From a virus (taxonomy: Duplodnaviria > Heunggongvirae > Uroviricota > Caudoviricetes): DNA of 48,452 nt. Position numbers and translations under genes: made by a program. How positions within the stretch are numbered: position 1 is the stretch's first letter; each line of letters begins with the position of its first letter. Below are positions 26,188-46,900 of the stretch, in pieces. The DNA lies in the IMG/VR virus record IMGVR_UViG_2718218453_000005; one strand, 5' to 3'. The notes below the pieces were generated by a model. It saw nothing but the letters and a program-made list of their open reading frames with translations, did no database searches and was not told the DNA's origin.

Positions 26188-27645
26188 TTAGGAGCGCCAA
26201 AAAAAACCTGAAAACAATATAATAACAGGATAAATTTCAAGGCGACCAAGAATCATAGCTATGCACATTAAACATTTTGCAATGTCATTAAGCACTCCGA
26301 ATGACGATGCAGTAGCCCCAAAACCTAATCCCATATTATTAATACATGCAGCCACTGTTGCAAATGATGTAAGAAAATCATATCCCATACCATTTAACAC
26401 CAGTATAAAAAACACCGTGAAGAGAGTATAAAGAAAAAAGAAACTCCATACAGACCTCATTACACGATCTGTAACTATCTTCCCTCCTACATTTACACTC
26501 AACAACGCTCTGGGATGAGAAAGCTGATTTATCTCGTGTTTGCTTTGTTTGAAAAGTATAAGAAATCGAAGTGACTTAATTCCACCACAAGTTGAACCTA
26601 TACATCCCCCAAAGAAACTTGACAACAGCAAAAACACTATCGTGTGCGTGGGCCAACTTGCATAATCCTGCGTAGCTAAACCATTATCAGTGAGCATGGA
26701 GCTGGCAAGAAAAAACGAATGAATAAAACTTCCATGCAAGTCATACATACCTATATGCCAGACCTGGAAAGAGGTAACAATGATCACCCCTAAGGCTATT
26801 AACAGAAAGAAACGAAGTTCAATATCTCTGATTAAAGGTTTTATCGTTTTCCTGCTAATAACAATATACCAAAGAGTGAAGTTGAAAGCCGATAGCAGGG
26901 AAAAAGAACCAGCCACCAGCTCAACCAAATAGTTATTAAAATATCCGATACTCTCGCTATGAGTTGAGAAACCACCAAGCGAAACTGTGGAAATCCCGTG
27001 ACAAATAGCATCAAACAAAGGCATTCCTGCAAGTCTATAACAGACAATACAAGCAATACCTAATAAAGAATAAGTTATCCACAGTGTCCGTGACGTATCG
27101 GCCAGGCGGGGAGTGAGTTTGTCATCCTTAAATGGCCCCGGCATTTCTGACTGATAAAGCTTTGCACCACCAATACCCAATAATGGCAATACAGCAACCG
27201 CCAGAACAATAACTCCTAAACCACCTATAAAATTTAACTGTGACCGATAGTACAAATATGCCCGAGGTAATGAACTAACATCATCAATTACAGTTGCTCC
27301 TGTTGTTGTTATTCCAGAAACCCCTTCAAACAGAGCATCAATGAACGTTAAATTAAGTTCTGAGTCAATCCATAAAGGGAATGCACTAATAACAGAAAAC
27401 AAAATCCAAAACATTACAATTATAATAAACCCATCACGGGTACGTAATTGAATGCCAGATTTCTTAGTTGTATACCACGCTCCGCCACCAATGCAAAAAA
27501 ATATAACGAAAGTTATAAAGAAAACGAACAGGCTTTTTTCTTTATAAAACAATGCTACAACCATTGGTGGCAACATTGAAAGACTATAGAGCCAAACCAG
27601 GAACCCACACATATGAGTAACAACTCTTACATGAGATGTATTCAT
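26188..27645 (-). CDS. trkG: Trk-system potassium uptake protein TrkG
   Basis: 485 aa from first ATG (MNTSHVRVVTHMCGF...); polytopic membrane protein matching K-12 Rac TrkG as recalled; AT-rich codon usage. Confidence 0.9.
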   Translation of the reverse strand: MNTSHVRVVTHMCGFLVWLYSLSMLPPMVVALFYKEKSLFVFFITFVIFFCIGGGAWYTTKKSGIQLRTRDGFIIIVMFWILFSVISAFPLWIDSELNLTFIDALFEGVSGITTTGATVIDDVSSLPRAYLYYRSQLNFIGGLGVIVLAVAVLPLLGIGGAKLYQSEMPGPFKDDKLTPRLADTSRTLWITYSLLGIACIVCYRLAGMPLFDAICHGISTVSLGGFSTHSESIGYFNNYLVELVAGSFSLLSAFNFTLWYIVISRKTIKPLIRDIELRFFLLIALGVIIVTSFQVWHIGMYDLHGSFIHSFFLASSMLTDNGLATQDYASWPTHTIVFLLLSSFFGGCIGSTCGGIKSLRFLILFKQSKHEINQLSHPRALLSVNVGGKIVTDRVMRSVWSFFFLYTLFTVFFILVLNGMGYDFLTSFATVAACINNMGLGFGATASSFGVLNDIAKCLMCIAMILGRLEIYPVIILFSGFFWRS

Positions 27646-27782
27646 ATCTAAATATTCTTTCAATTATAACCACCTTGCTGCAATATTATGATTATACTGT
27701 ATAAAATTTAACTCCTCTTAGATCTTACTTCACTGTTCCTTATGAAACAATCATCAAAATGAATCATATTGTAGTTAAGATT

Positions 27783-28247
27783 TTACTTTAAACACTGCTC
27801 GGTTATGTATTGCTGAGCACCTTCAAGTTGGGCCTGCATCATTACCAGTCGTTCCCGGAGGGTGAAATAATCCCGTTCAGCGGTGTCTGCCAGTCGGGGG
27901 GAGGCTGCATTATCCACGCCGGAGGCGGTGGTGGCTTCACGCACTGACTGACAGACTGCTTTGATGTGCAACCGACGACGACCAGCGGCAACATCATCAC
28001 GCAGAGCATCATTTTCAGCTTTCGCATCAGCTAACTCCTTCGTGTATTTTGCATCGAGCGCAGCAACATCACGCTGACGCATCTGCATGTCAGTAATTGC
28101 CGCGTTCGCCAGCTTCAGTTCTCTGGCATTTTTGTCGCGCTGTTCTTTGTAGGCGATGGCGTTATCACGGTAATGATTAACACCCCATGACAGGCAGACG
28201 ACGATGCAGATAACCAGAGCGGAGATAATCGCGGTTACTCTGCTCAT
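27783..28247 (-). CDS. Rz: i-spanin Rz
   Basis: 154 aa, N-terminal TM helix, coiled-coil periplasmic domain; lambda Rz-like; overlaps R stop. Confidence 0.85.
27842..28027 (-). CDS. Rz1: o-spanin Rz1 (lipoprotein, embedded in Rz +1 frame)
   Basis: 61 aa; MLPLVVVGC lipobox, [15 protein letters not shown] proline-rich, as lambda Rz1. Confidence 0.85.
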
Positions 28248-28720
28248 ACCTCAATCTCTCTGACCGTTCCGCCAGCTTCTTTGAATTTTGCAATCAGACT
28301 GTCAGCCTTATGCTCGAACTGACCATAACCAGCGCCCGGCAGTGAAGCCCATATATTGCTGCAACGGTCGATAGCCTGACGGATATCACCGCGATCAATC
28401 ATCGGCAAAGCGCCACGCTCTTTAATCTGCTGCAGCGCTACAGCATCCTGACTTTCTGGAGAAAAATCTTTCAGGCCAAGTTGCTTGCGGTAGGCATCCC
28501 ACCAGCGTGAAAGAAGCTGGTAACGTCCAGCGGCTGTTGATTTGAGTTTCGGATTTAGCGTGACAAGTTTGCGGGGGTGATCGGAGTAATCAGTGAACAG
28601 TTCGCCACCGACAATAACATCATAACCGTGATTTCTGGTTTTCTGCCGTCCGTTATCTGTTCCTTCTGACCATGCCACCATATCAAGGAAAGCTTTACGC
28701 TGGGAATTAAGTGTCTGCAT
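28244..28720 (-). CDS. R: endolysin, lambda R-type lytic transglycosylase
   Basis: 158 aa; [48 protein letters not shown]... near-identical to lambda R as recalled. Confidence 0.9.
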
Positions 28721-28723
28721 TAA

Positions 28724-29065
28724 TTACTCCTTATGGGCACCGAACTTGTTACCGATGACCCTCATTGCCGCACCACGAATAGCATCAACACCAATCAGCC
28801 CCACCCCACCACCAATGGCAACAGAAAGTGATTTAGGCCATCCGACATACTCAAGCGCGGATGCAAAGGTCAGCGTCAGAGCACCACAAAGCAGAATCTC
28901 AAGCGTTTTTCGTTTCCAGCCGCCGCCACCGCCAAAATAGGCAATGCGCAAACCAGCCATAATAATTGACATAACCACTGCACCCAGCGGCGTATCTCCA
29001 CGCCACCAACTTTGTAAGAGTTCCAGTAAGTCAGGCCAGGAATGAGGGGCATTGTGCATTTTCAT
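28724..29065 (-). CDS. holin
   Basis: trimmed to first ATG (MKMHNAP..., ORF-track start is GTG); MKM dual-start-like motif, hydrophobic helices, charged C-terminus; GGAGGTGAGG SD; directly upstream of R. Confidence 0.7.
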   Translation of the reverse strand: MKMHNAPHSWPDLLELLQSWWRGDTPLGAVVMSIIMAGLRIAYFGGGGGWKRKTLEILLCGALTLTFASALEYVGWPKSLSVAIGGGVGLIGVDAIRGAAMRVIGNKFGAHKE

Positions 29066-29159
29066 AAGCCTCACCTCCGAGAGTTCGGATGGTGCTAAGT
29101 GTAAGATTCAGGCTCTCAGGCTTGCTAACAAGAAGTCGAGGATGTTTCCGGAGCCTAAC

Positions 29160-29188
29160 AACGAAAAAGCCCCGGGACATGCCGGGGC
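29160..29188 (-). terminator. rho-independent terminator downstream of membrane-protein moron
   Basis: minus strand GCCCCGG-loop-CCGGGGC followed by TTTTT. Confidence 0.5.
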
Positions 29189-29282
29189 CAGATGGAGTGC
29201 CAGATTAAGCTTCTGGCGGTATATACTCGTGTTTGATATCGTTAAATCGCCAAAAGTAACAATTCAAACAAAGAGGATTTTT

Positions 29283-29444
29283 ATGTCTGAAAAAAACAAA
29301 CCACAAGGTGAAAATAAACCTCAGCAACCCGTGGCACCAAAACCAACTCCAACACAAAGTACTACAGACTTTGCTACACGTCGTGTTTTTGTTGGAGATT
29401 CTGCCGACTCAGTCATTGAACATATAAAAAAACAGCCGAGATAA
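29283..29444 (+). CDS. small hypothetical protein (53 aa), Pro/Gln-rich
   Basis: ATG with AAGAGGA SD 6 nt upstream; MSEKNKPQGENKPQQPVAPKPTPTQ...; convergent with and overlapping 3' end of 29413..29982 gene. Confidence 0.4.
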   Translation: MSEKNKPQGENKPQQPVAPKPTPTQSTTDFATRRVFVGDSADSVIEHIKKQPR

Positions 29445-29982
29445 ACATCGCCGCTACCGGAGCAAGGATGGTATACATCCTTGCTTTATCGAGACTCGTG
29501 CGGATTTTCTCATTTTCCAACAGTAACTCTCTTGCTGTATCACTCAAGTCAACAAGGCGATACCTTCGTATAAGCGGCAATAACTTATCAGGTCCTAAAT
29601 ATCCTGCATCAGCGAATATTTTAAAGCTCGAGGGCTCCATATCCTTATATTTTTCATGATATAGATGATCAGGAGGGGCATTGATCAGGCCCCTAACCTT
29701 CACAGATAAACCAGTACATACCAAGTAAATGGCGCACCATGTCCATAGTAATGTAAATGTGGTAATTCCGGCGGTGAGAAAATCGAAATTAGTTTTCTGT
29801 GTCAGCAATAAAAAAGATGAACCAATTCCAACAATCTGAATGTTCAGAAGTTTGTATCCATTCTCAACATTGGTTTTGTTAGAAAGATGAATCTCTCGTA
29901 TCGTCTCTTCCCCTTGTTTTTCAAGATAATCGACGAGCTCATCATCTACTCCTAAAAAATAATCTTTAGGTAGTTCTCTCAT
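29413..29982 (-). CDS. hypothetical membrane protein (moron in Q-S slot)
   Basis: 189 aa, ATG with GGAGGTG SD, three predicted TM helices, AT-rich, located between tR'-like terminator and holin. Confidence 0.65.
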   Translation of the reverse strand: MRELPKDYFLGVDDELVDYLEKQGEETIREIHLSNKTNVENGYKLLNIQIVGIGSSFLLLTQKTNFDFLTAGITTFTLLWTWCAIYLVCTGLSVKVRGLINAPPDHLYHEKYKDMEPSSFKIFADAGYLGPDKLLPLIRRYRLVDLSDTARELLLENEKIRTSLDKARMYTILAPVAAMFISAVFLYVQ

Positions 29983-30087
29983 CTCACCTCCACATCCTGT
30001 ACTGAAAACAATTTTACCAGAATGTCTCGATTCTAGGTATTCCGCCAGGAATCGCGCTCCAGAAATGAAACATCAGGTTCGCCAGTA

Positions 30088-30120
30088 CCAGAAACAACAA
30101 AACCCGCTCAATGGCGGGTT
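30088..30120 (-). terminator. tR'-like terminator downstream of Q-like gene
   Basis: minus strand AACCCGC-CATTGA-GCGGGTT followed by TTTGTTGTTT, about 85 nt after Q-like stop. Confidence 0.6.
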
Positions 30121-30203
30121 CTGGTAAAGTTCATGCGCTTGGTTCGCCTCGCGATACAGCTTTGCGAAGCATACCGGAATTGAAGCAGTTTATGCGTAAA
30201 AAA

Positions 30204-30746
30204 TCAAGCTATTTTTTGAGCAAATGATTCTCGCATGGGAATATATAGGGCATACTCAGCAACAGCCAACCAATTAGCAATTCGCTTTTCGCATGTGCTA
30301 AAACACCACTCAGGATGTGCATCATTTAGCAATTCAGCCATTTTGCGCTTAGTCATCCCCCGTCCTTCATACCGTTGCCGGAGGACACTAATCAATCCAG
30401 GATGCTCTGCCAGCACCTCACTTATGACTCTATCAATACATAACGCCTCTGCATCAGTACAATGCGCCAGCCAGCTCTTTTGCTTGCCGTTGATCATCTC
30501 TCGCAAAAACGCTTCCAGCTCAGCTTTCTCTATTCCCGCTTTTTTCATTCTGCGCAGGGCTTCATTGATGGCTGTTTTCGTCAATTTTTTGGATGCCAAC
30601 AACTGATTGAACATATTTCCTGACCTGCCACCGCCAATATACGACCAGCGCCCCCACATACGCAGTTTGCCCTGAATCCAGACACTTTCCAGCGTGGCGA
30701 GACGAAGGTGTTCTCCGCTTTTTCCTGTATTCGTTGGGTAAATCAC
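30204..30746 (-). CDS. putative late-gene antitermination protein Q
   Basis: 181 aa from GTG with GGAGGG SD, start overlaps ybcO-like stop (GTGA); position immediately before terminator and lysis genes; sequence family assignment from memory only. Confidence 0.5.
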   Translation of the reverse strand: MIYPTNTGKSGEHLRLATLESVWIQGKLRMWGRWSYIGGGRSGNMFNQLLASKKLTKTAINEALRRMKKAGIEKAELEAFLREMINGKQKSWLAHCTDAEALCIDRVISEVLAEHPGLISVLRQRYEGRGMTKRKMAELLNDAHPEWCFSTCEKRIANWLAVAEYALYIPMRESFAQKIA

Positions 30747-31033
30747 AAATATCCCTCCTTTCTCCAGATTTCTTGTGTGCGAAAAACACCTTCTGCATGC
30801 ATCAGGCGTAATTCTTCTTTGGTGTAATCGCTGGTTTTTACCCGCCCGTCGATTAGATCGTGGCATGAGCTACAGGCAATCGCCGCCTGCATATCGTGTG
30901 GTTTTGTCGCTGTTCCGCACGTTCCCGCCAGTCGGTAATGCGCCAGCACAGACGTTTCCGGATCATGATTGCAGTAGCCAGGAATTCTGACGGTGCACAT
31001 CTGCCCCCGCGCCGCTTTACGTAAATCCACCAT
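30743..31033 (-). CDS. YbcO-like protein (DUF1364, putative nuclease)
   Basis: 96 aa; LRKAARGQMCTVRIPGYCNHDPETSVLAHYRLAG...IACSSCHD resembles DLP12 YbcO as recalled; Cys/His cluster. Confidence 0.7.
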   Translation of the reverse strand: MVDLRKAARGQMCTVRIPGYCNHDPETSVLAHYRLAGTCGTATKPHDMQAAIACSSCHDLIDGRVKTSDYTKEELRLMHAEGVFRTQEIWRKEGYL

Positions 31034-46524: not shown

Positions 46525-46719
46525 ATGAGATATGACAATGTTAAACCATGTCCATTTTGTGGTTGTCCATCAGTAACGGTGAAAGTCATTTCAGGATATT
46601 ACCGAGCGAAGTGTAACGGATGCGAATCCCGAACCGGTTATGGTGGAAGTGAAAAAGAAGCACTCGAAAGATGGAATAAACGAACCACTGGAAATAATAA
46701 CGGAGGTGTTCATGTATAA
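46525..46719 (+). CDS. ralR: restriction alleviation protein RalR / Lar
   Basis: 64 aa from ATG MRYDNVKPCPFCGCPSVTVK...; two CxxC pairs; matches Rac RalR as recalled. Confidence 0.85.
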   Translation: MRYDNVKPCPFCGCPSVTVKVISGYYRAKCNGCESRTGYGGSEKEALERWNKRTTGNNNGGVHV

Positions 46720-46900
46720 AATTACCGCCACTATTGAAAAGGAAGGTGGCACTCCTACTAACTGGACAAGATATTCAAAATCTAAACTAACGAAATCAGA
46801 ATGCGAAAAAATGCTCTCAGGTAAAAAAGAAGCAGGCGTTTCCAGAGAGCAGAAAGTAAAACTGATAAATTTTAATTGCGAGAAACTTCAGTCCTCGTGA
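46712..46900 (+). CDS. ydaC: YdaC-like protein
   Basis: 62 aa from ATG MYKITATIEKEGGTPTNWTRYSK...; overlaps ralR stop. Confidence 0.75.
   Translation: MYKITATIEKEGGTPTNWTRYSKSKLTKSECEKMLSGKKEAGVSREQKVKLINFNCEKLQSS

Follow-up and report, generated by a model that had tools for sequence, protein, structure and literature searches.

Does the gene pair that lies between the late antiterminator and the holin of a lambdoid prophage form a functional unit, and what might such a unit do? The window, meaning the whole stretch of 48,452 nucleotides that was analysed (IMG/VR record IMGVR_UViG_2718218453_000005), is a Rac-like lambdoid prophage of E. coli whose late genes lie on the minus strand. A preliminary description had noted an AT-rich reading frame of 189 codons with a GGAGGTG Shine-Dalgarno (SD) sequence between a tR'-like terminator and the holin, and on the opposite strand a Pro/Gln-rich frame of 53 codons with an AAGAGGA SD that overlaps its 3' end by about 30 nt. 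It read the pair as a moron in the Q-S slot, and left room for the small frame being fortuitous. All of these elements were located in the window, the overlap measuring 32 nt (Table 1).

Table 1. Features of the cassette, in window coordinates
Feature	Position	Strand	Remarks
Upstream intrinsic terminator, tR'-like, just downstream of Q gene	30098..30123	-	followed by tail TTGTTGTTTCTGG; upstream cassette edge
Promoter-like element CATTCTGGTAAAAT	30011..30024	-	-10 hexamer TAAAAT at 30016..30011, preceded by TGG
SD GGAGGTG of membrane-protein gene	29985..29991	-	
189-aa ORF (membrane-protein gene)	29413..29982	-	ATG start; WP_001208722, phrog_11870
Tail-to-tail overlap of both coding regions	29413..29444	both	32 nt, including both stop codons
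Small ORF, 53 aa	29283..29444	+	phrog_14506
SD AAGAGGA of small gene	29271..29277	+	
Conserved hairpin abutting the small-gene ribosome-binding site	29231..29269	-	GUUUGA-AUU-GUUA-CUUUUGGCGAUU-UAAC-GAUA-UCAAAC
Second hairpin (GCCAGA-loop-TCTGGC)	29199..29218	-	between first hairpin and terminator; seen by eye in alignments, tentative
Downstream intrinsic terminator	29158..29189	-	GGCCCCGG-CATGTC-CCGGGGCT, then TTTTTCGTTG; downstream cassette edge

The locus and its signals

The cassette is preceded by the Q gene (DUF1133/Phage_antitermQ in Pfam) and followed by a holin gene (Phage_holin_3_1), the longest ORF of which starts with GTG at 29074. At 0.39, the GC content of the membrane gene is well below that of Q (0.47) and of the holin, lysozyme and Rz genes (0.49-0.52), and such a deviation from adjoining genes is one of the marks of a moron, defined as an independent accessory transcription unit of a prophage (PMC3594210). 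The same prophage also carries the RNA-antitoxin systems RalA (ralR/ralA) and sok (hok/sok).

A hairpin with a similar tail stands upstream of the membrane gene in most related loci. Between it and the gene, about 30-45 nt upstream of the ATG, sits the TAAAAT element, and nearly all of the approximately 45 distinct upstream regions share the consensus cAtTcaGgTAAAAT. No conserved -35 sequence accompanies the element, none is recognisable for a promoter of either gene, and a consensus promoter scan called neither. Judged by its conservation, the element may be a promoter; since the membrane gene would then start at its own promoter and stop at its own terminator, expression from the repressed prophage is possible, and Q-modified polymerase would also read through late in infection. 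The gene's own terminator, as first described, is upheld as a prediction, with a minus-strand hairpin at 29189..29168 and a T-run to 29158, which leaves 84 nt before the start of the longest holin ORF; its position is conserved and its stem shows compensatory changes.

The conserved block next to the small-gene ribosome-binding site was also considered as a promoter, and is read as an RNA hairpin because no acceptable -10/-35 pair was found in either orientation and in one clade the ribosome-binding site would lie too near. The stem carries compensatory changes, and a YUNR-type motif, UUGG, is found in the conserved loop. When both strands of each sequence were folded, the hairpin was more stable as minus-strand RNA in 21 of 27 versions, with an asymmetry of -3.1 kcal/mol towards the strand of the membrane gene, a pattern suggestive of control by antisense RNA. 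One clade and the distant relatives have other sequences in place of the hairpin, which is not kept outside the Enterobacterales, although the gene pair is. In the tentative second hairpin the structure is conserved while the sequence varies, and it is absent from the RNAalifold consensus. Rfam has no family that matches at the locus.

The membrane protein

Three hydrophobic segments were read by eye in the 189-aa protein, at about 45-61, 68-92 and 169-188, and the AlphaFold model, all-helical with a pLDDT of 82, has long helices over all three. A strict Kyte-Doolittle scan (19-residue window, threshold 1.6) flags the second and third, with the first falling below the threshold, so that the three helices of the preliminary description hold by eye and by model and two of them by strict hydropathy. 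The predicted layout runs from an acidic N-terminal helix through TM1 (containing IVGIGSSF) and TM2 to a helical region with an RRYRL motif, assigned to the cytoplasm, and ends with TM3. The protein belongs to a real, conserved family that forms 104 clusters at 90% identity across the Enterobacterales. Most members have about 189 aa, and 25 residues are invariant; a profile search found 102 representatives, Gilliamella and Gallibacterium among them. The gene is frequently truncated or disrupted among relatives, which would fit a product that is costly or toxic.

The small gene on the opposite strand

The 53-aa protein contains seven prolines and five glutamines, and is hydrophilic (nine lysines plus arginines, six aspartates plus glutamates) with no hydrophobic segment. 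Its N-terminal half is Pro/Gln/Lys-rich, of low complexity, rich in indels and poorly conserved. The C-terminal part carries the motif DF(A/S)xxRxxVG(D/N)SA(D/E)..KK, which is still present where identity has dropped to 30-40% and in relatives that belong to other orders of bacteria. Modelled alone, the protein is disordered except for a single short C-terminal helix. PGAP places the start at a GTG at 29229 (WP_152948782), and some annotations skip the gene, which overlaps another on the opposite strand.

Of 60 distinct related loci, 58 have a convergent ORF of 47-64 aa, with an ATG and an SD, beside the membrane gene. In distant relatives the small ORFs are shorter (26-53 aa), and one still adjoins membrane-protein relatives of 27-35% identity. 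It was first allowed that the small ORF might be fortuitous, and the extreme form of that idea would have the nucleotide sequence alone matter, as a 3' UTR or antisense RNA, with the frame an incidental by-product. The weakly conserved, low-complexity N-terminal half would suit it, as would the low pN/pS of 0.38 in the antisense frame whose wobble positions coincide. The conservation pattern is nevertheless that of a protein. Among 44 distinct nucleotide versions the small-gene frame is the sole frame open in every one, and each opposite-strand frame is broken by stop codons in at least 33. All indels between versions are multiples of three, third-position changes predominate, and the start codon is preceded in all homologues by a GGAG/AGGA/GAGG element at constant distance. 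The small gene has a pooled pN/pS of 0.34 and a median dN/dS of 0.19, whereas pN/pS is 1.0-1.4 in all but one of the five other frames. Together with the retained C-terminal peptide motif and the strict linkage described below, these observations make the by-product reading very improbable and dispose of a fortuitous ORF: the small ORF is a real protein-coding gene under purifying selection, and not merely an antisense RNA.

The two genes are strictly linked. They converge in every locus examined, no small gene without a membrane gene was seen among the loci sampled from the small-protein side, and the two proteins co-diverge (Spearman 0.64). The overlap measures 20, 23, 26, 32 or 35 nt in the homologues, always 2 modulo 3, so that the frame relation is constant. 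Damaged versions do occur. One viral contig (L028) has a frameshift in an A7 run of the small gene and an intact membrane gene, which, if real, speaks against an indispensable antidote, and in one E. coli lineage a deletion of 1 nt within the overlap alters the C-termini of both proteins.

Distribution and mobility

Matches to some part of a 1161-nt region that includes the flanks were found in 1493 E. coli genomes, of which only 222 cover at least 80%, and the cassette itself was matched in 253; close relatives thus differ by its presence or absence at the same position (222-253 against 1493). About 4% of complete E. coli genomes carry it. With this patchiness, its AT-richness, its bracketing terminators and a conserved -10-like element of its own, the cassette has the anatomy of the moron in the Q-S slot that had been proposed.

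It is also found in prophages of Klebsiella, Citrobacter, Salmonella, Serratia, Yersinia, Proteus, Providencia and Morganella, and the gene pair occurs widely in the Enterobacterales and in Pasteurellales and Orbales as well. In most enterobacterial loci the pair directly precedes the holin in the late direction; the Q genes ahead of it encode proteins of four Pfam families, and the holins after it are of the lambda-S, P21 and LydA types. Other sites are the interval that separates tail chaperone/KilA-N genes from the tape measure gene, a position after a tape measure gene, and the neighbourhood of cI-like, Bro and AntA genes. The cassette is a mobile accessory unit that is not tied to the Q-S slot.

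Searches for known families

The only families that took in the two proteins were two of 'unknown function' in PHROGs (phrog_11870 and phrog_14506). Neither protein matched Pfam or NCBIfam, even at E-values of 1-10, nor any of the 5027 models of PADLOC-DB v2.0 at E-values up to 1. A profile search of solved structures gave nothing meaningful, and fold searches of solved and viral folds returned generic long-helix matches only. The Pfam matches of 65 distant relatives and of the longer relatives were set aside as weak, compositional hits to membrane DUFs only, and two sequences considered as fusions (P0162 and P0190) are repetitive sequences instead. In a tblastn search of 50,697 phage records the 189-aa protein found five records only, with HK97, P22, lambda and phi80 absent from them. 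A search of the literature by accession and PHROG number found no report on either protein.

Several specific identities were considered. SieB (PF14163) was unmatched by the window protein at Pfam E-values up to 10, and the same holds for the holin models of Pfam and NCBIfam, the true holin being the next gene. The Pycsar transmembrane effector PycTM (PF18967) likewise did not match the window protein; a match of one distant relative (P0129) listed in a precomputed table was sub-threshold on re-scanning, at 16.1 bits and an E-value of 0.016 over one helix, with a cut-off of 27.2. No cyclase gene adjoins the phage-borne cassettes whose neighbours were listed. A gene with a Guanylate_cyc domain lies about 1.3 kb upstream of the weakest relative only, in a non-phage context. 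A type II toxin-antitoxin operon was rejected, as it needs co-directional, co-transcribed genes and the present genes are convergent, and so was a type I system with a small hydrophobic toxin of less than 60 aa, as the membrane protein has 189 aa and the small protein is hydrophilic.

What the pair may do

The reading that we prefer, tentatively and at somewhat short of an even chance, is that of a self-contained, horizontally mobile moron with two protein genes and RNA control that works by an effector/modulator mechanism. The effector would be an N-in, three-pass inner-membrane protein, on the predicted topology, that most likely blocks or aborts the infection of other phages, or else acts as a membrane-damaging toxin. 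The 53-aa protein, soluble and largely disordered, would be its cognate modulator, whether an antidote, a self-immunity factor or a trigger. We propose that transcription of one gene interferes with the other, because the two converge and overlap. The 3' untranslated part of the membrane-gene RNA would carry the hairpin exactly opposite the small-gene ribosome-binding site, and for that reason the membrane-gene transcript probably pairs as antisense with the small-gene mRNA and keeps down its translation. The module would probably serve for exclusion, abortive infection or as a toxin-antidote pair, with each gene controlling the other through antisense. Its function, like its expression, the topology, the contact between the two proteins and the direction of regulation, is what we infer from sequence and models. 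The earlier idea of an exclusion protein with an antisense-encoded regulator is still a reasonable hypothesis. That the cassette represents an unrecognised family of prophage immunity or addiction modules, with a three-pass effector checked or triggered by a tiny disordered protein from the opposite strand and wired by overlap and antisense hairpin into a hybrid of protein-antidote and RNA-antitoxin logic, is a more doubtful proposition that we would still entertain.

The simplest competitor is superinfection exclusion by the membrane protein alone, which would block DNA entry as HK97 gp15 and P22 SieA do without being toxic, leaving the small protein as a regulator or accessory and not an antidote. 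An inner-membrane protein encoded in classic moron slots, that of gp15 included (PMC3594210), with promoter- and terminator-like signals of its own, is what such a view would expect, and variants with a damaged small gene and an intact membrane gene fit it too. No sequence similarity to gp15, SieA or SieB came out of the tblastn search of 50,697 phage records, however, the linkage of the small protein and the purifying selection on it over deep divergence exceed what a dispensable accessory would lead one to expect, and the frequent truncation of the membrane gene suggests a cost; we regard exclusion by the membrane protein alone as rather unlikely. The roles could instead be turned around in a type I-like toxin-antitoxin system. 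There the toxin or active effector would be the hydrophilic 53-aa protein, and an antisense antitoxin would come from the membrane-gene strand, either as the 3' UTR of that gene's transcript or as a small RNA in its own right; the membrane protein would be co-transported cargo or serve as a second component. The hairpin opposite the ribosome-binding site, with its UUGG loop and the greater stability of the antisense strand, points this way, and hairpin, second hairpin and terminator together are laid out like an antisense RNA some 105 nt long; by eye, the reverse complement of the spacer between SD and ATG resembles a -10 element, and RalA and sok reside in the same prophage. Yet the small protein has no hydrophobic helix and is mostly disordered by prediction, an Rfam match is absent, the hairpin is not conserved outside the Enterobacterales although the gene pair is, and there would be no explanation of why the two proteins are so strictly linked and diverge together, all of which makes this reversal of roles improbable.

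Lower still we place an accessory of lysis timing, a pair that would modulate the holin or the envelope in the lytic cycle, be made from the Q-dependent late transcript only and have no role in the lysogen. The usual position just upstream of the holin in the late direction speaks for it, as do the holin-like size and helix number of the membrane protein. A terminator-bracketed cassette with its own conserved -10-like element is hard to square with dependence on late transcription only; moreover, unrelated holin families adjoin the pair, the loci in tail and early regions are far from the lysis genes, the holin models were unmatched at E-values up to 10, and most related prophages are without the cassette, so that a lysis-timing role appears distinctly improbable.

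Comparison with known systems

The preferred reading, an effector at the membrane with a small modulator, has parallels in several prophages, of which phi80 and P22 set precedents for the control of prophage defence genes by transcription of the opposite strand. Lambda RexA/RexB, a module expressed from the prophage, pairs a multi-pass inner-membrane protein with a soluble one; rexA and rexB are co-directional in the immunity operon, and RexA is 279 aa long. The present pair also combines a membrane protein with a soluble partner, but it is convergent and no similarity was found. Type I toxin-antitoxin systems such as hok/sok and ralR/ralA share with it a convergent or overlapping antisense arrangement, carriage by prophages, a membrane product and a structured antisense element over a ribosome-binding site, here a predicted hairpin. 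They differ in that the present membrane protein has 189 aa where theirs is a peptide of less than 60 aa, and in that its partner codes for a selected protein and Rfam gives no match.

HK97 gp15 is an exclusion moron in the slot between tail chaperone and tape measure (PMC3594210), a slot also used by some relatives of this cassette. Both are small inner-membrane proteins, the present one by prediction, encoded by insertions of deviant GC content in a lambdoid prophage; gp15 is independently transcribed, and the present gene putatively so. No sequence similarity is detectable and exclusion is hypothetical for the present protein, and whereas gp15 is a single gene, the cassette always comes with a convergent, overlapping partner and an RNA hairpin. 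In P22 sieB/esc/sas, membrane-associated exclusion of the abortive-infection type is switched by a cis-antisense RNA, and the small protein Esc counteracts the effector SieB (PMC12197685). The combination of prophage membrane protein, small protein and antisense is shared, with putative roles in our case. Esc, however, is an in-frame product of sieB and the sas RNA is non-coding, whereas the present small gene is separate, lies on the opposite strand and codes for a protein; nor does the window protein match SieB or any other Pfam model.

Phage phi80 has a defence gene and a small counter-defence gene (TaiEcA/AtiEcA) on opposite strands inside the Q-controlled late operon, and because of this arrangement late transcription lowers the opposite-strand gene (PMC11364771). 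The present small gene is likewise antisense to the late direction between Q and holin. The two arrangements are mirror images: in phi80 the opposite strand codes for the defence protein, of 26 kDa and directed at tail assembly, and the late strand for the small one, in contrast to the present cassette with its large membrane protein on the late strand and small protein opposite. There is also no homology, phi80 being unmatched by tblastn of the 189-aa protein, and the present genes overlap at their 3' ends.

Significance

Beyond what the preliminary description contained, the new elements are a protein partner under selection, an RNA hairpin at the ribosome-binding site and independence from a particular slot. 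Prophage morons are a main source of phage resistance and lysogenic conversion and most are unannotated; this cassette escapes the current defence-system finders. Should it be an exclusion or abortive-infection module, it would be relevant to the choice of phages for therapy against pathogens that carry it, and it would offer a compact example of a protein-coding antisense partner combined with control at the RNA level. Whatever the function, the strictly linked pair is a clean case for selection on overlapping convergent genes.

Prophage setting

The gene pair lies in a lambdoid prophage of the Rac type, hosted by E. coli, with the late genes on the minus strand in the order Q, cassette (the pair with its flanking terminators, promoter-like element and hairpin), holin, lysozyme-like gene, Rz with its embedded Rz1, and trkG. 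All elements of the anatomy drawn in the preliminary description were recovered: a 189-aa ORF with GGAGGTG seven bases 5' of its ATG, a 53-codon ORF on the opposite strand with AAGAGGA five bases 5' of its ATG, a tR'-like terminator upstream, seen as a terminator-like hairpin right after Q, and a separate downstream terminator, with 84 nt between it and the point where the longest holin ORF begins. The convergent 3' overlap, put at about 30 nt, measures 32 nt, and the membrane gene is indeed AT-rich (GC 39%, against 47-52% in its neighbours). Several complete E. coli genomes match this locus at 100% identity over 1.16 kb, and the NCBI annotation there lists both products as "hypothetical proteins": WP_001208722, of 189 aa, and WP_152948782, of 71 aa. 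The latter starts at a GTG at 29229 and shares frame and stop with the 53-codon ORF.

Features of the cassette and its prophage surroundings
Feature	Coordinates	Strand	Remark
RalA, Rfam match	46718..46896	-	antitoxin RNA of ralR
sok, Rfam match	33046..33216	-	
Antiterminator Q	30204..30866	-	DUF1133/Phage_antitermQ type
TTGGCT-18-TATATT	30240..30269	-	sole promoter-like site from scan of late strand
Terminator-like hairpin after Q	30123..30098		
Extended -10-like sequence CATTCTGGTAAAAT	30024..30011	-	window version of cATTCAGGTAAAAT
Membrane gene	29413..29982	-	189 aa
Small gene	29283..29444	+	53 codons
A7 run	29290..29296		just after small-gene start codon
Downstream terminator	29189..29168		
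Lambda-family holin	28724..29074	-	downstream of cassette in late order
MRLMKM, start of longest holin ORF	29057..29074	-	PGAP start is MKM
Lysozyme-like gene	28244..28720	-	glycoside hydrolase family 24 protein or endolysin in annotation of matching genomes
61-aa ORF in another frame within Rz	27842..28027	-	lipoprotein-like N-terminus (LVVVGC), proline-rich tail
trkG	26188..27663	-	TrkH-family potassium transporter, GC 0.38

Several neighbours deserve mention in their own right. The trkG gene directly follows the lysis cassette, carries the same annotation in phage records and matching genomes, and appears to be a second piece of AT-rich cargo in the prophage. The 61-aa ORF within Rz looks, from its sequence, like the embedded Rz1 (o-spanin), and the MRLMKM start of the holin is similar to the motif by which lambda S has a dual start (antiholin/holin). 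A possible late promoter pR' is the TTGGCT-18-TATATT site, which lies inside the 3' end of Q, some 110 nt ahead of the tR'-like terminator. RalA and sok both exceed the Rfam gathering score, which gives the prophage two RNA-antitoxin systems that are already known; at the matching position of one matching genome the annotation names hokD.

The small opposite-strand gene

It had been left open that the small ORF was fortuitous. Homologous loci from species-representative genomes (9), viral contigs (80) and one phage record gave 60 distinct downstream regions, 58 of which hold an opposite-strand ORF of 47-64 codons with an ATG and a GGAG, AGGA or GAGG at the usual distance. Both exceptions come from E. 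coli and are almost identical to each other, one with an ambiguous base and the other with an A lost from the A7 run; the ORF is also absent from three further loci, each with a truncated or interrupted membrane gene. It ends 20, 23, 26, 32 or 35 nt within the membrane gene, and the frame relation is constant. Among 44 distinct nucleotide versions, indels are in frame and differences fall mostly at third codon positions, with a pooled pN/pS of 0.34 and a median dN/dS of 0.19; of the five other frames, four give a pN/pS of 1.0-1.4 and one, the antisense frame with coinciding wobble positions, gives 0.38. None of the 44 versions interrupts the sense frame, and each opposite-strand frame has stop codons in at least 33 of them. 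The retained ATG and Shine-Dalgarno sequence, in-frame indels, purifying selection and linkage to the membrane gene led us to reject the fortuitous reading: on this comparative evidence the small ORF is a gene, and the pair is almost certainly real.

The N-terminal half of the small protein is variable and rich in Pro, Gln and Lys, and its C-terminus carries a conserved DF(A/S)xxRxxVG(D/N)SA(D/E) followed by a Lys-rich tail. The prediction for the isolated protein is a disordered chain with one short helix, and the 43 clusters of it in public annotations are all "hypothetical". Variants of the A7 run, A6 (a frameshift) in viral contig L028 and N plus A6 in another contig, L016, could be sequencing errors or slippage-prone inactivation.

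The membrane protein family

A search of 5.8 billion proteins returned 104 clusters of the membrane protein, most about 189 residues long, with identity down to about 42% and hosts including E. coli, Klebsiella, Citrobacter, Salmonella, Enterobacter, Serratia, Yersinia, Pantoea, Proteus, Providencia and Morganella. About 100 remoter members, 160-200 aa in length and including some Gilliamella and Gallibacterium proteins, were added by a profile search of 1.84 billion representatives. Invariant in the family alignment are 25 positions, among them those of IVGIGSSF (helix 1), W80/A84 (helix 2), P104-x-x-L-Y, an RRYRL motif and P175. Neither the window protein nor its relatives matched Pfam, NCBIfam or PADLOC; PHROGs assigned only phrog_11870, "unknown function", and structure comparisons gave generic helical bundles only. 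This is a real, uncharacterised family.

The three hydrophobic helices described earlier are present: the stretches at residues about 45-61, 68-92 and 169-188 are all covered by long helices in a confident AlphaFold model (pLDDT 82). A strict hydropathy threshold is passed by the second and third only. The acidic N-terminus, the Lys/Arg residues after helix 2 and before helix 3 and the short helix 1-2 loop would fit a three-pass, N-in, C-out topology.

The membrane gene is often truncated or disrupted among homologous loci, which is compatible with a cost of its product. In locus L008 the match stops, together with the reading frame, at about 112 residues, with an unrelated ORF behind it, and in L010 a long opposite-strand ORF directly follows the shortened gene; both appear to have been cut short by an inserted element, a putative insertion sequence. 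The weakest relative (L098/L099, E 6e-4) has GC-rich surroundings that are not of phage type and lies downstream of a large Guanylate_cyc-TPR protein, with a small Pro-rich opposite-strand ORF that does not overlap; it is a candidate member only.

Linkage and distribution

Divergence in one protein goes with divergence in the other (Spearman 0.64 over 990 pairs), and the membrane gene was convergent and overlapping in 8 of 8 loci, these being all places listed for two small-protein clusters. Remote membrane-protein relatives (27-35% identity) likewise come with a small ORF of this character that is convergent and overlaps the membrane gene, as in a Gilliamella-type phage (MNKQKEQQPSPKPVPRFVGNEQEKKK) and in Gallibacterium-type prophages (45- and 53-aa versions).

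The cassette is found behind Q proteins of four Pfam families (DUF1133, PF06530, PF03589 and PF06323) and ahead of lambda-S, P21-type, LydA-type and other holins. In one E. coli clade it sits between tail chaperone/KilA-N genes and the tape measure; other slots are immediately after a tape measure gene and beside cI-like repressor, Bro and AntA genes. Of 5426 complete E. coli genomes, 222-253 contain the cassette, and 1493 match part of the surrounding sequence. In several E. coli genomes a 1-nt deletion in the 32-nt overlap (window 29433; locus L102, NZ_CP173557.1) alters both C-termini, giving a 190-aa membrane protein and a small ORF that is no longer annotated.

Promoter-like element, terminators and hairpin

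In nearly all loci, cATTCAGGTAAAAT lies upstream of the membrane gene, about 35-45 nt before its start codon; ahead of it comes a terminator hairpin whose tail is similar between loci. Most loci have a downstream intrinsic terminator with compensatory stem changes, about 100 nt past the small-gene start in the membrane-gene sense. This terminator is absent from L042-L047, Klebsiella/Citrobacter-type loci of 72-75% identity, in which a tRNA-gene-like sequence (GGCCCTTTAGCTCAG...) follows the cassette about 120-200 nt past the small-gene start in the membrane-gene direction.

The block between the terminator and the small-gene ribosome site is conserved far above either protein. It folds as a hairpin, GUUUGA/UCAAAC plus GUUA/UAAC around a CUUUUGGCGAUU loop, with compensatory substitutions (UUUGA/UCAAA versus UCUGA/UCAGA; GUUA/UAAC versus GUUG/CAAC). 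G-U pairs make the membrane-gene strand the more stable of the two in 21 of 27 versions, with a mean difference of 3.1 kcal/mol. A divergent clade has a different hairpin at the same place. No Rfam family matches the block. The hairpin would be a structured element within the 3' UTR of the membrane gene, or within a separate RNA of that strand, positioned for pairing with the small-gene translation start. As a sigma-70 promoter the block fits in neither direction, and in one clade the ribosome site is too close.

In distant relatives direct repeats replace the enterobacterial hairpin: two of them (TTATAAGTTGTGGTWACAA; TAYGCGTTGTGGT) lie upstream of the small gene in loci L096 (3700..3760) and L100 (3650..3710), and these may be operators.

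Relation to known systems and possible function

Morons are insertions that differ in composition from their surroundings, have a promoter and a terminator of their own and can be expressed from a repressed prophage, and the HK97 gp15 exclusion protein is an inner-membrane example (PMC3594210), in a slot type that the cassette also uses. Deviant composition, terminators and the promoter-like element support the earlier moron reading, and the anatomy fits the definition with the promoter putative. Prophage defence genes with a small antagonist and opposite-strand transcription control are known as phi80 TaiEcA/AtiEcA, within the Q operon (PMC11364771), and P22 sieB/esc/sas (PMC12197685); a Pseudomonas phage has overlapping opposite-strand genes with exclusion activity (PMC9936078). 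The defining sequence features of SieB, PycTM, holins, PADLOC systems and Tai are all absent from the cassette, and it departs from type I and type II toxin-antitoxin definitions in toxin size, hydrophobicity or gene orientation. It is best called a prophage moron with defence-like architecture, and its two protein families are both unassigned. We know of no earlier description of a protein-coding, 3'-overlapping antisense partner with a hairpin at its ribosome site.

The moron anatomy and the precedents of defence genes controlled from the opposite strand lead us to a tentative proposal, for which the odds are somewhat short of even. The membrane protein would act as effector, whether in exclusion, in abortive infection or in a toxin-type function, of which exclusion, suggested earlier, is plausible; the small protein would be its cognate modulator, and the convergent overlap and hairpin would place both genes under reciprocal control. 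Two variants weigh against a strict antidote role for the small protein: a contig that has a frameshifted small gene next to an intact membrane gene, and the E. coli lineage with the overlap deletion. Though no surprise to specialists, the cassette is widespread, cleanly delimited and experimentally tractable.
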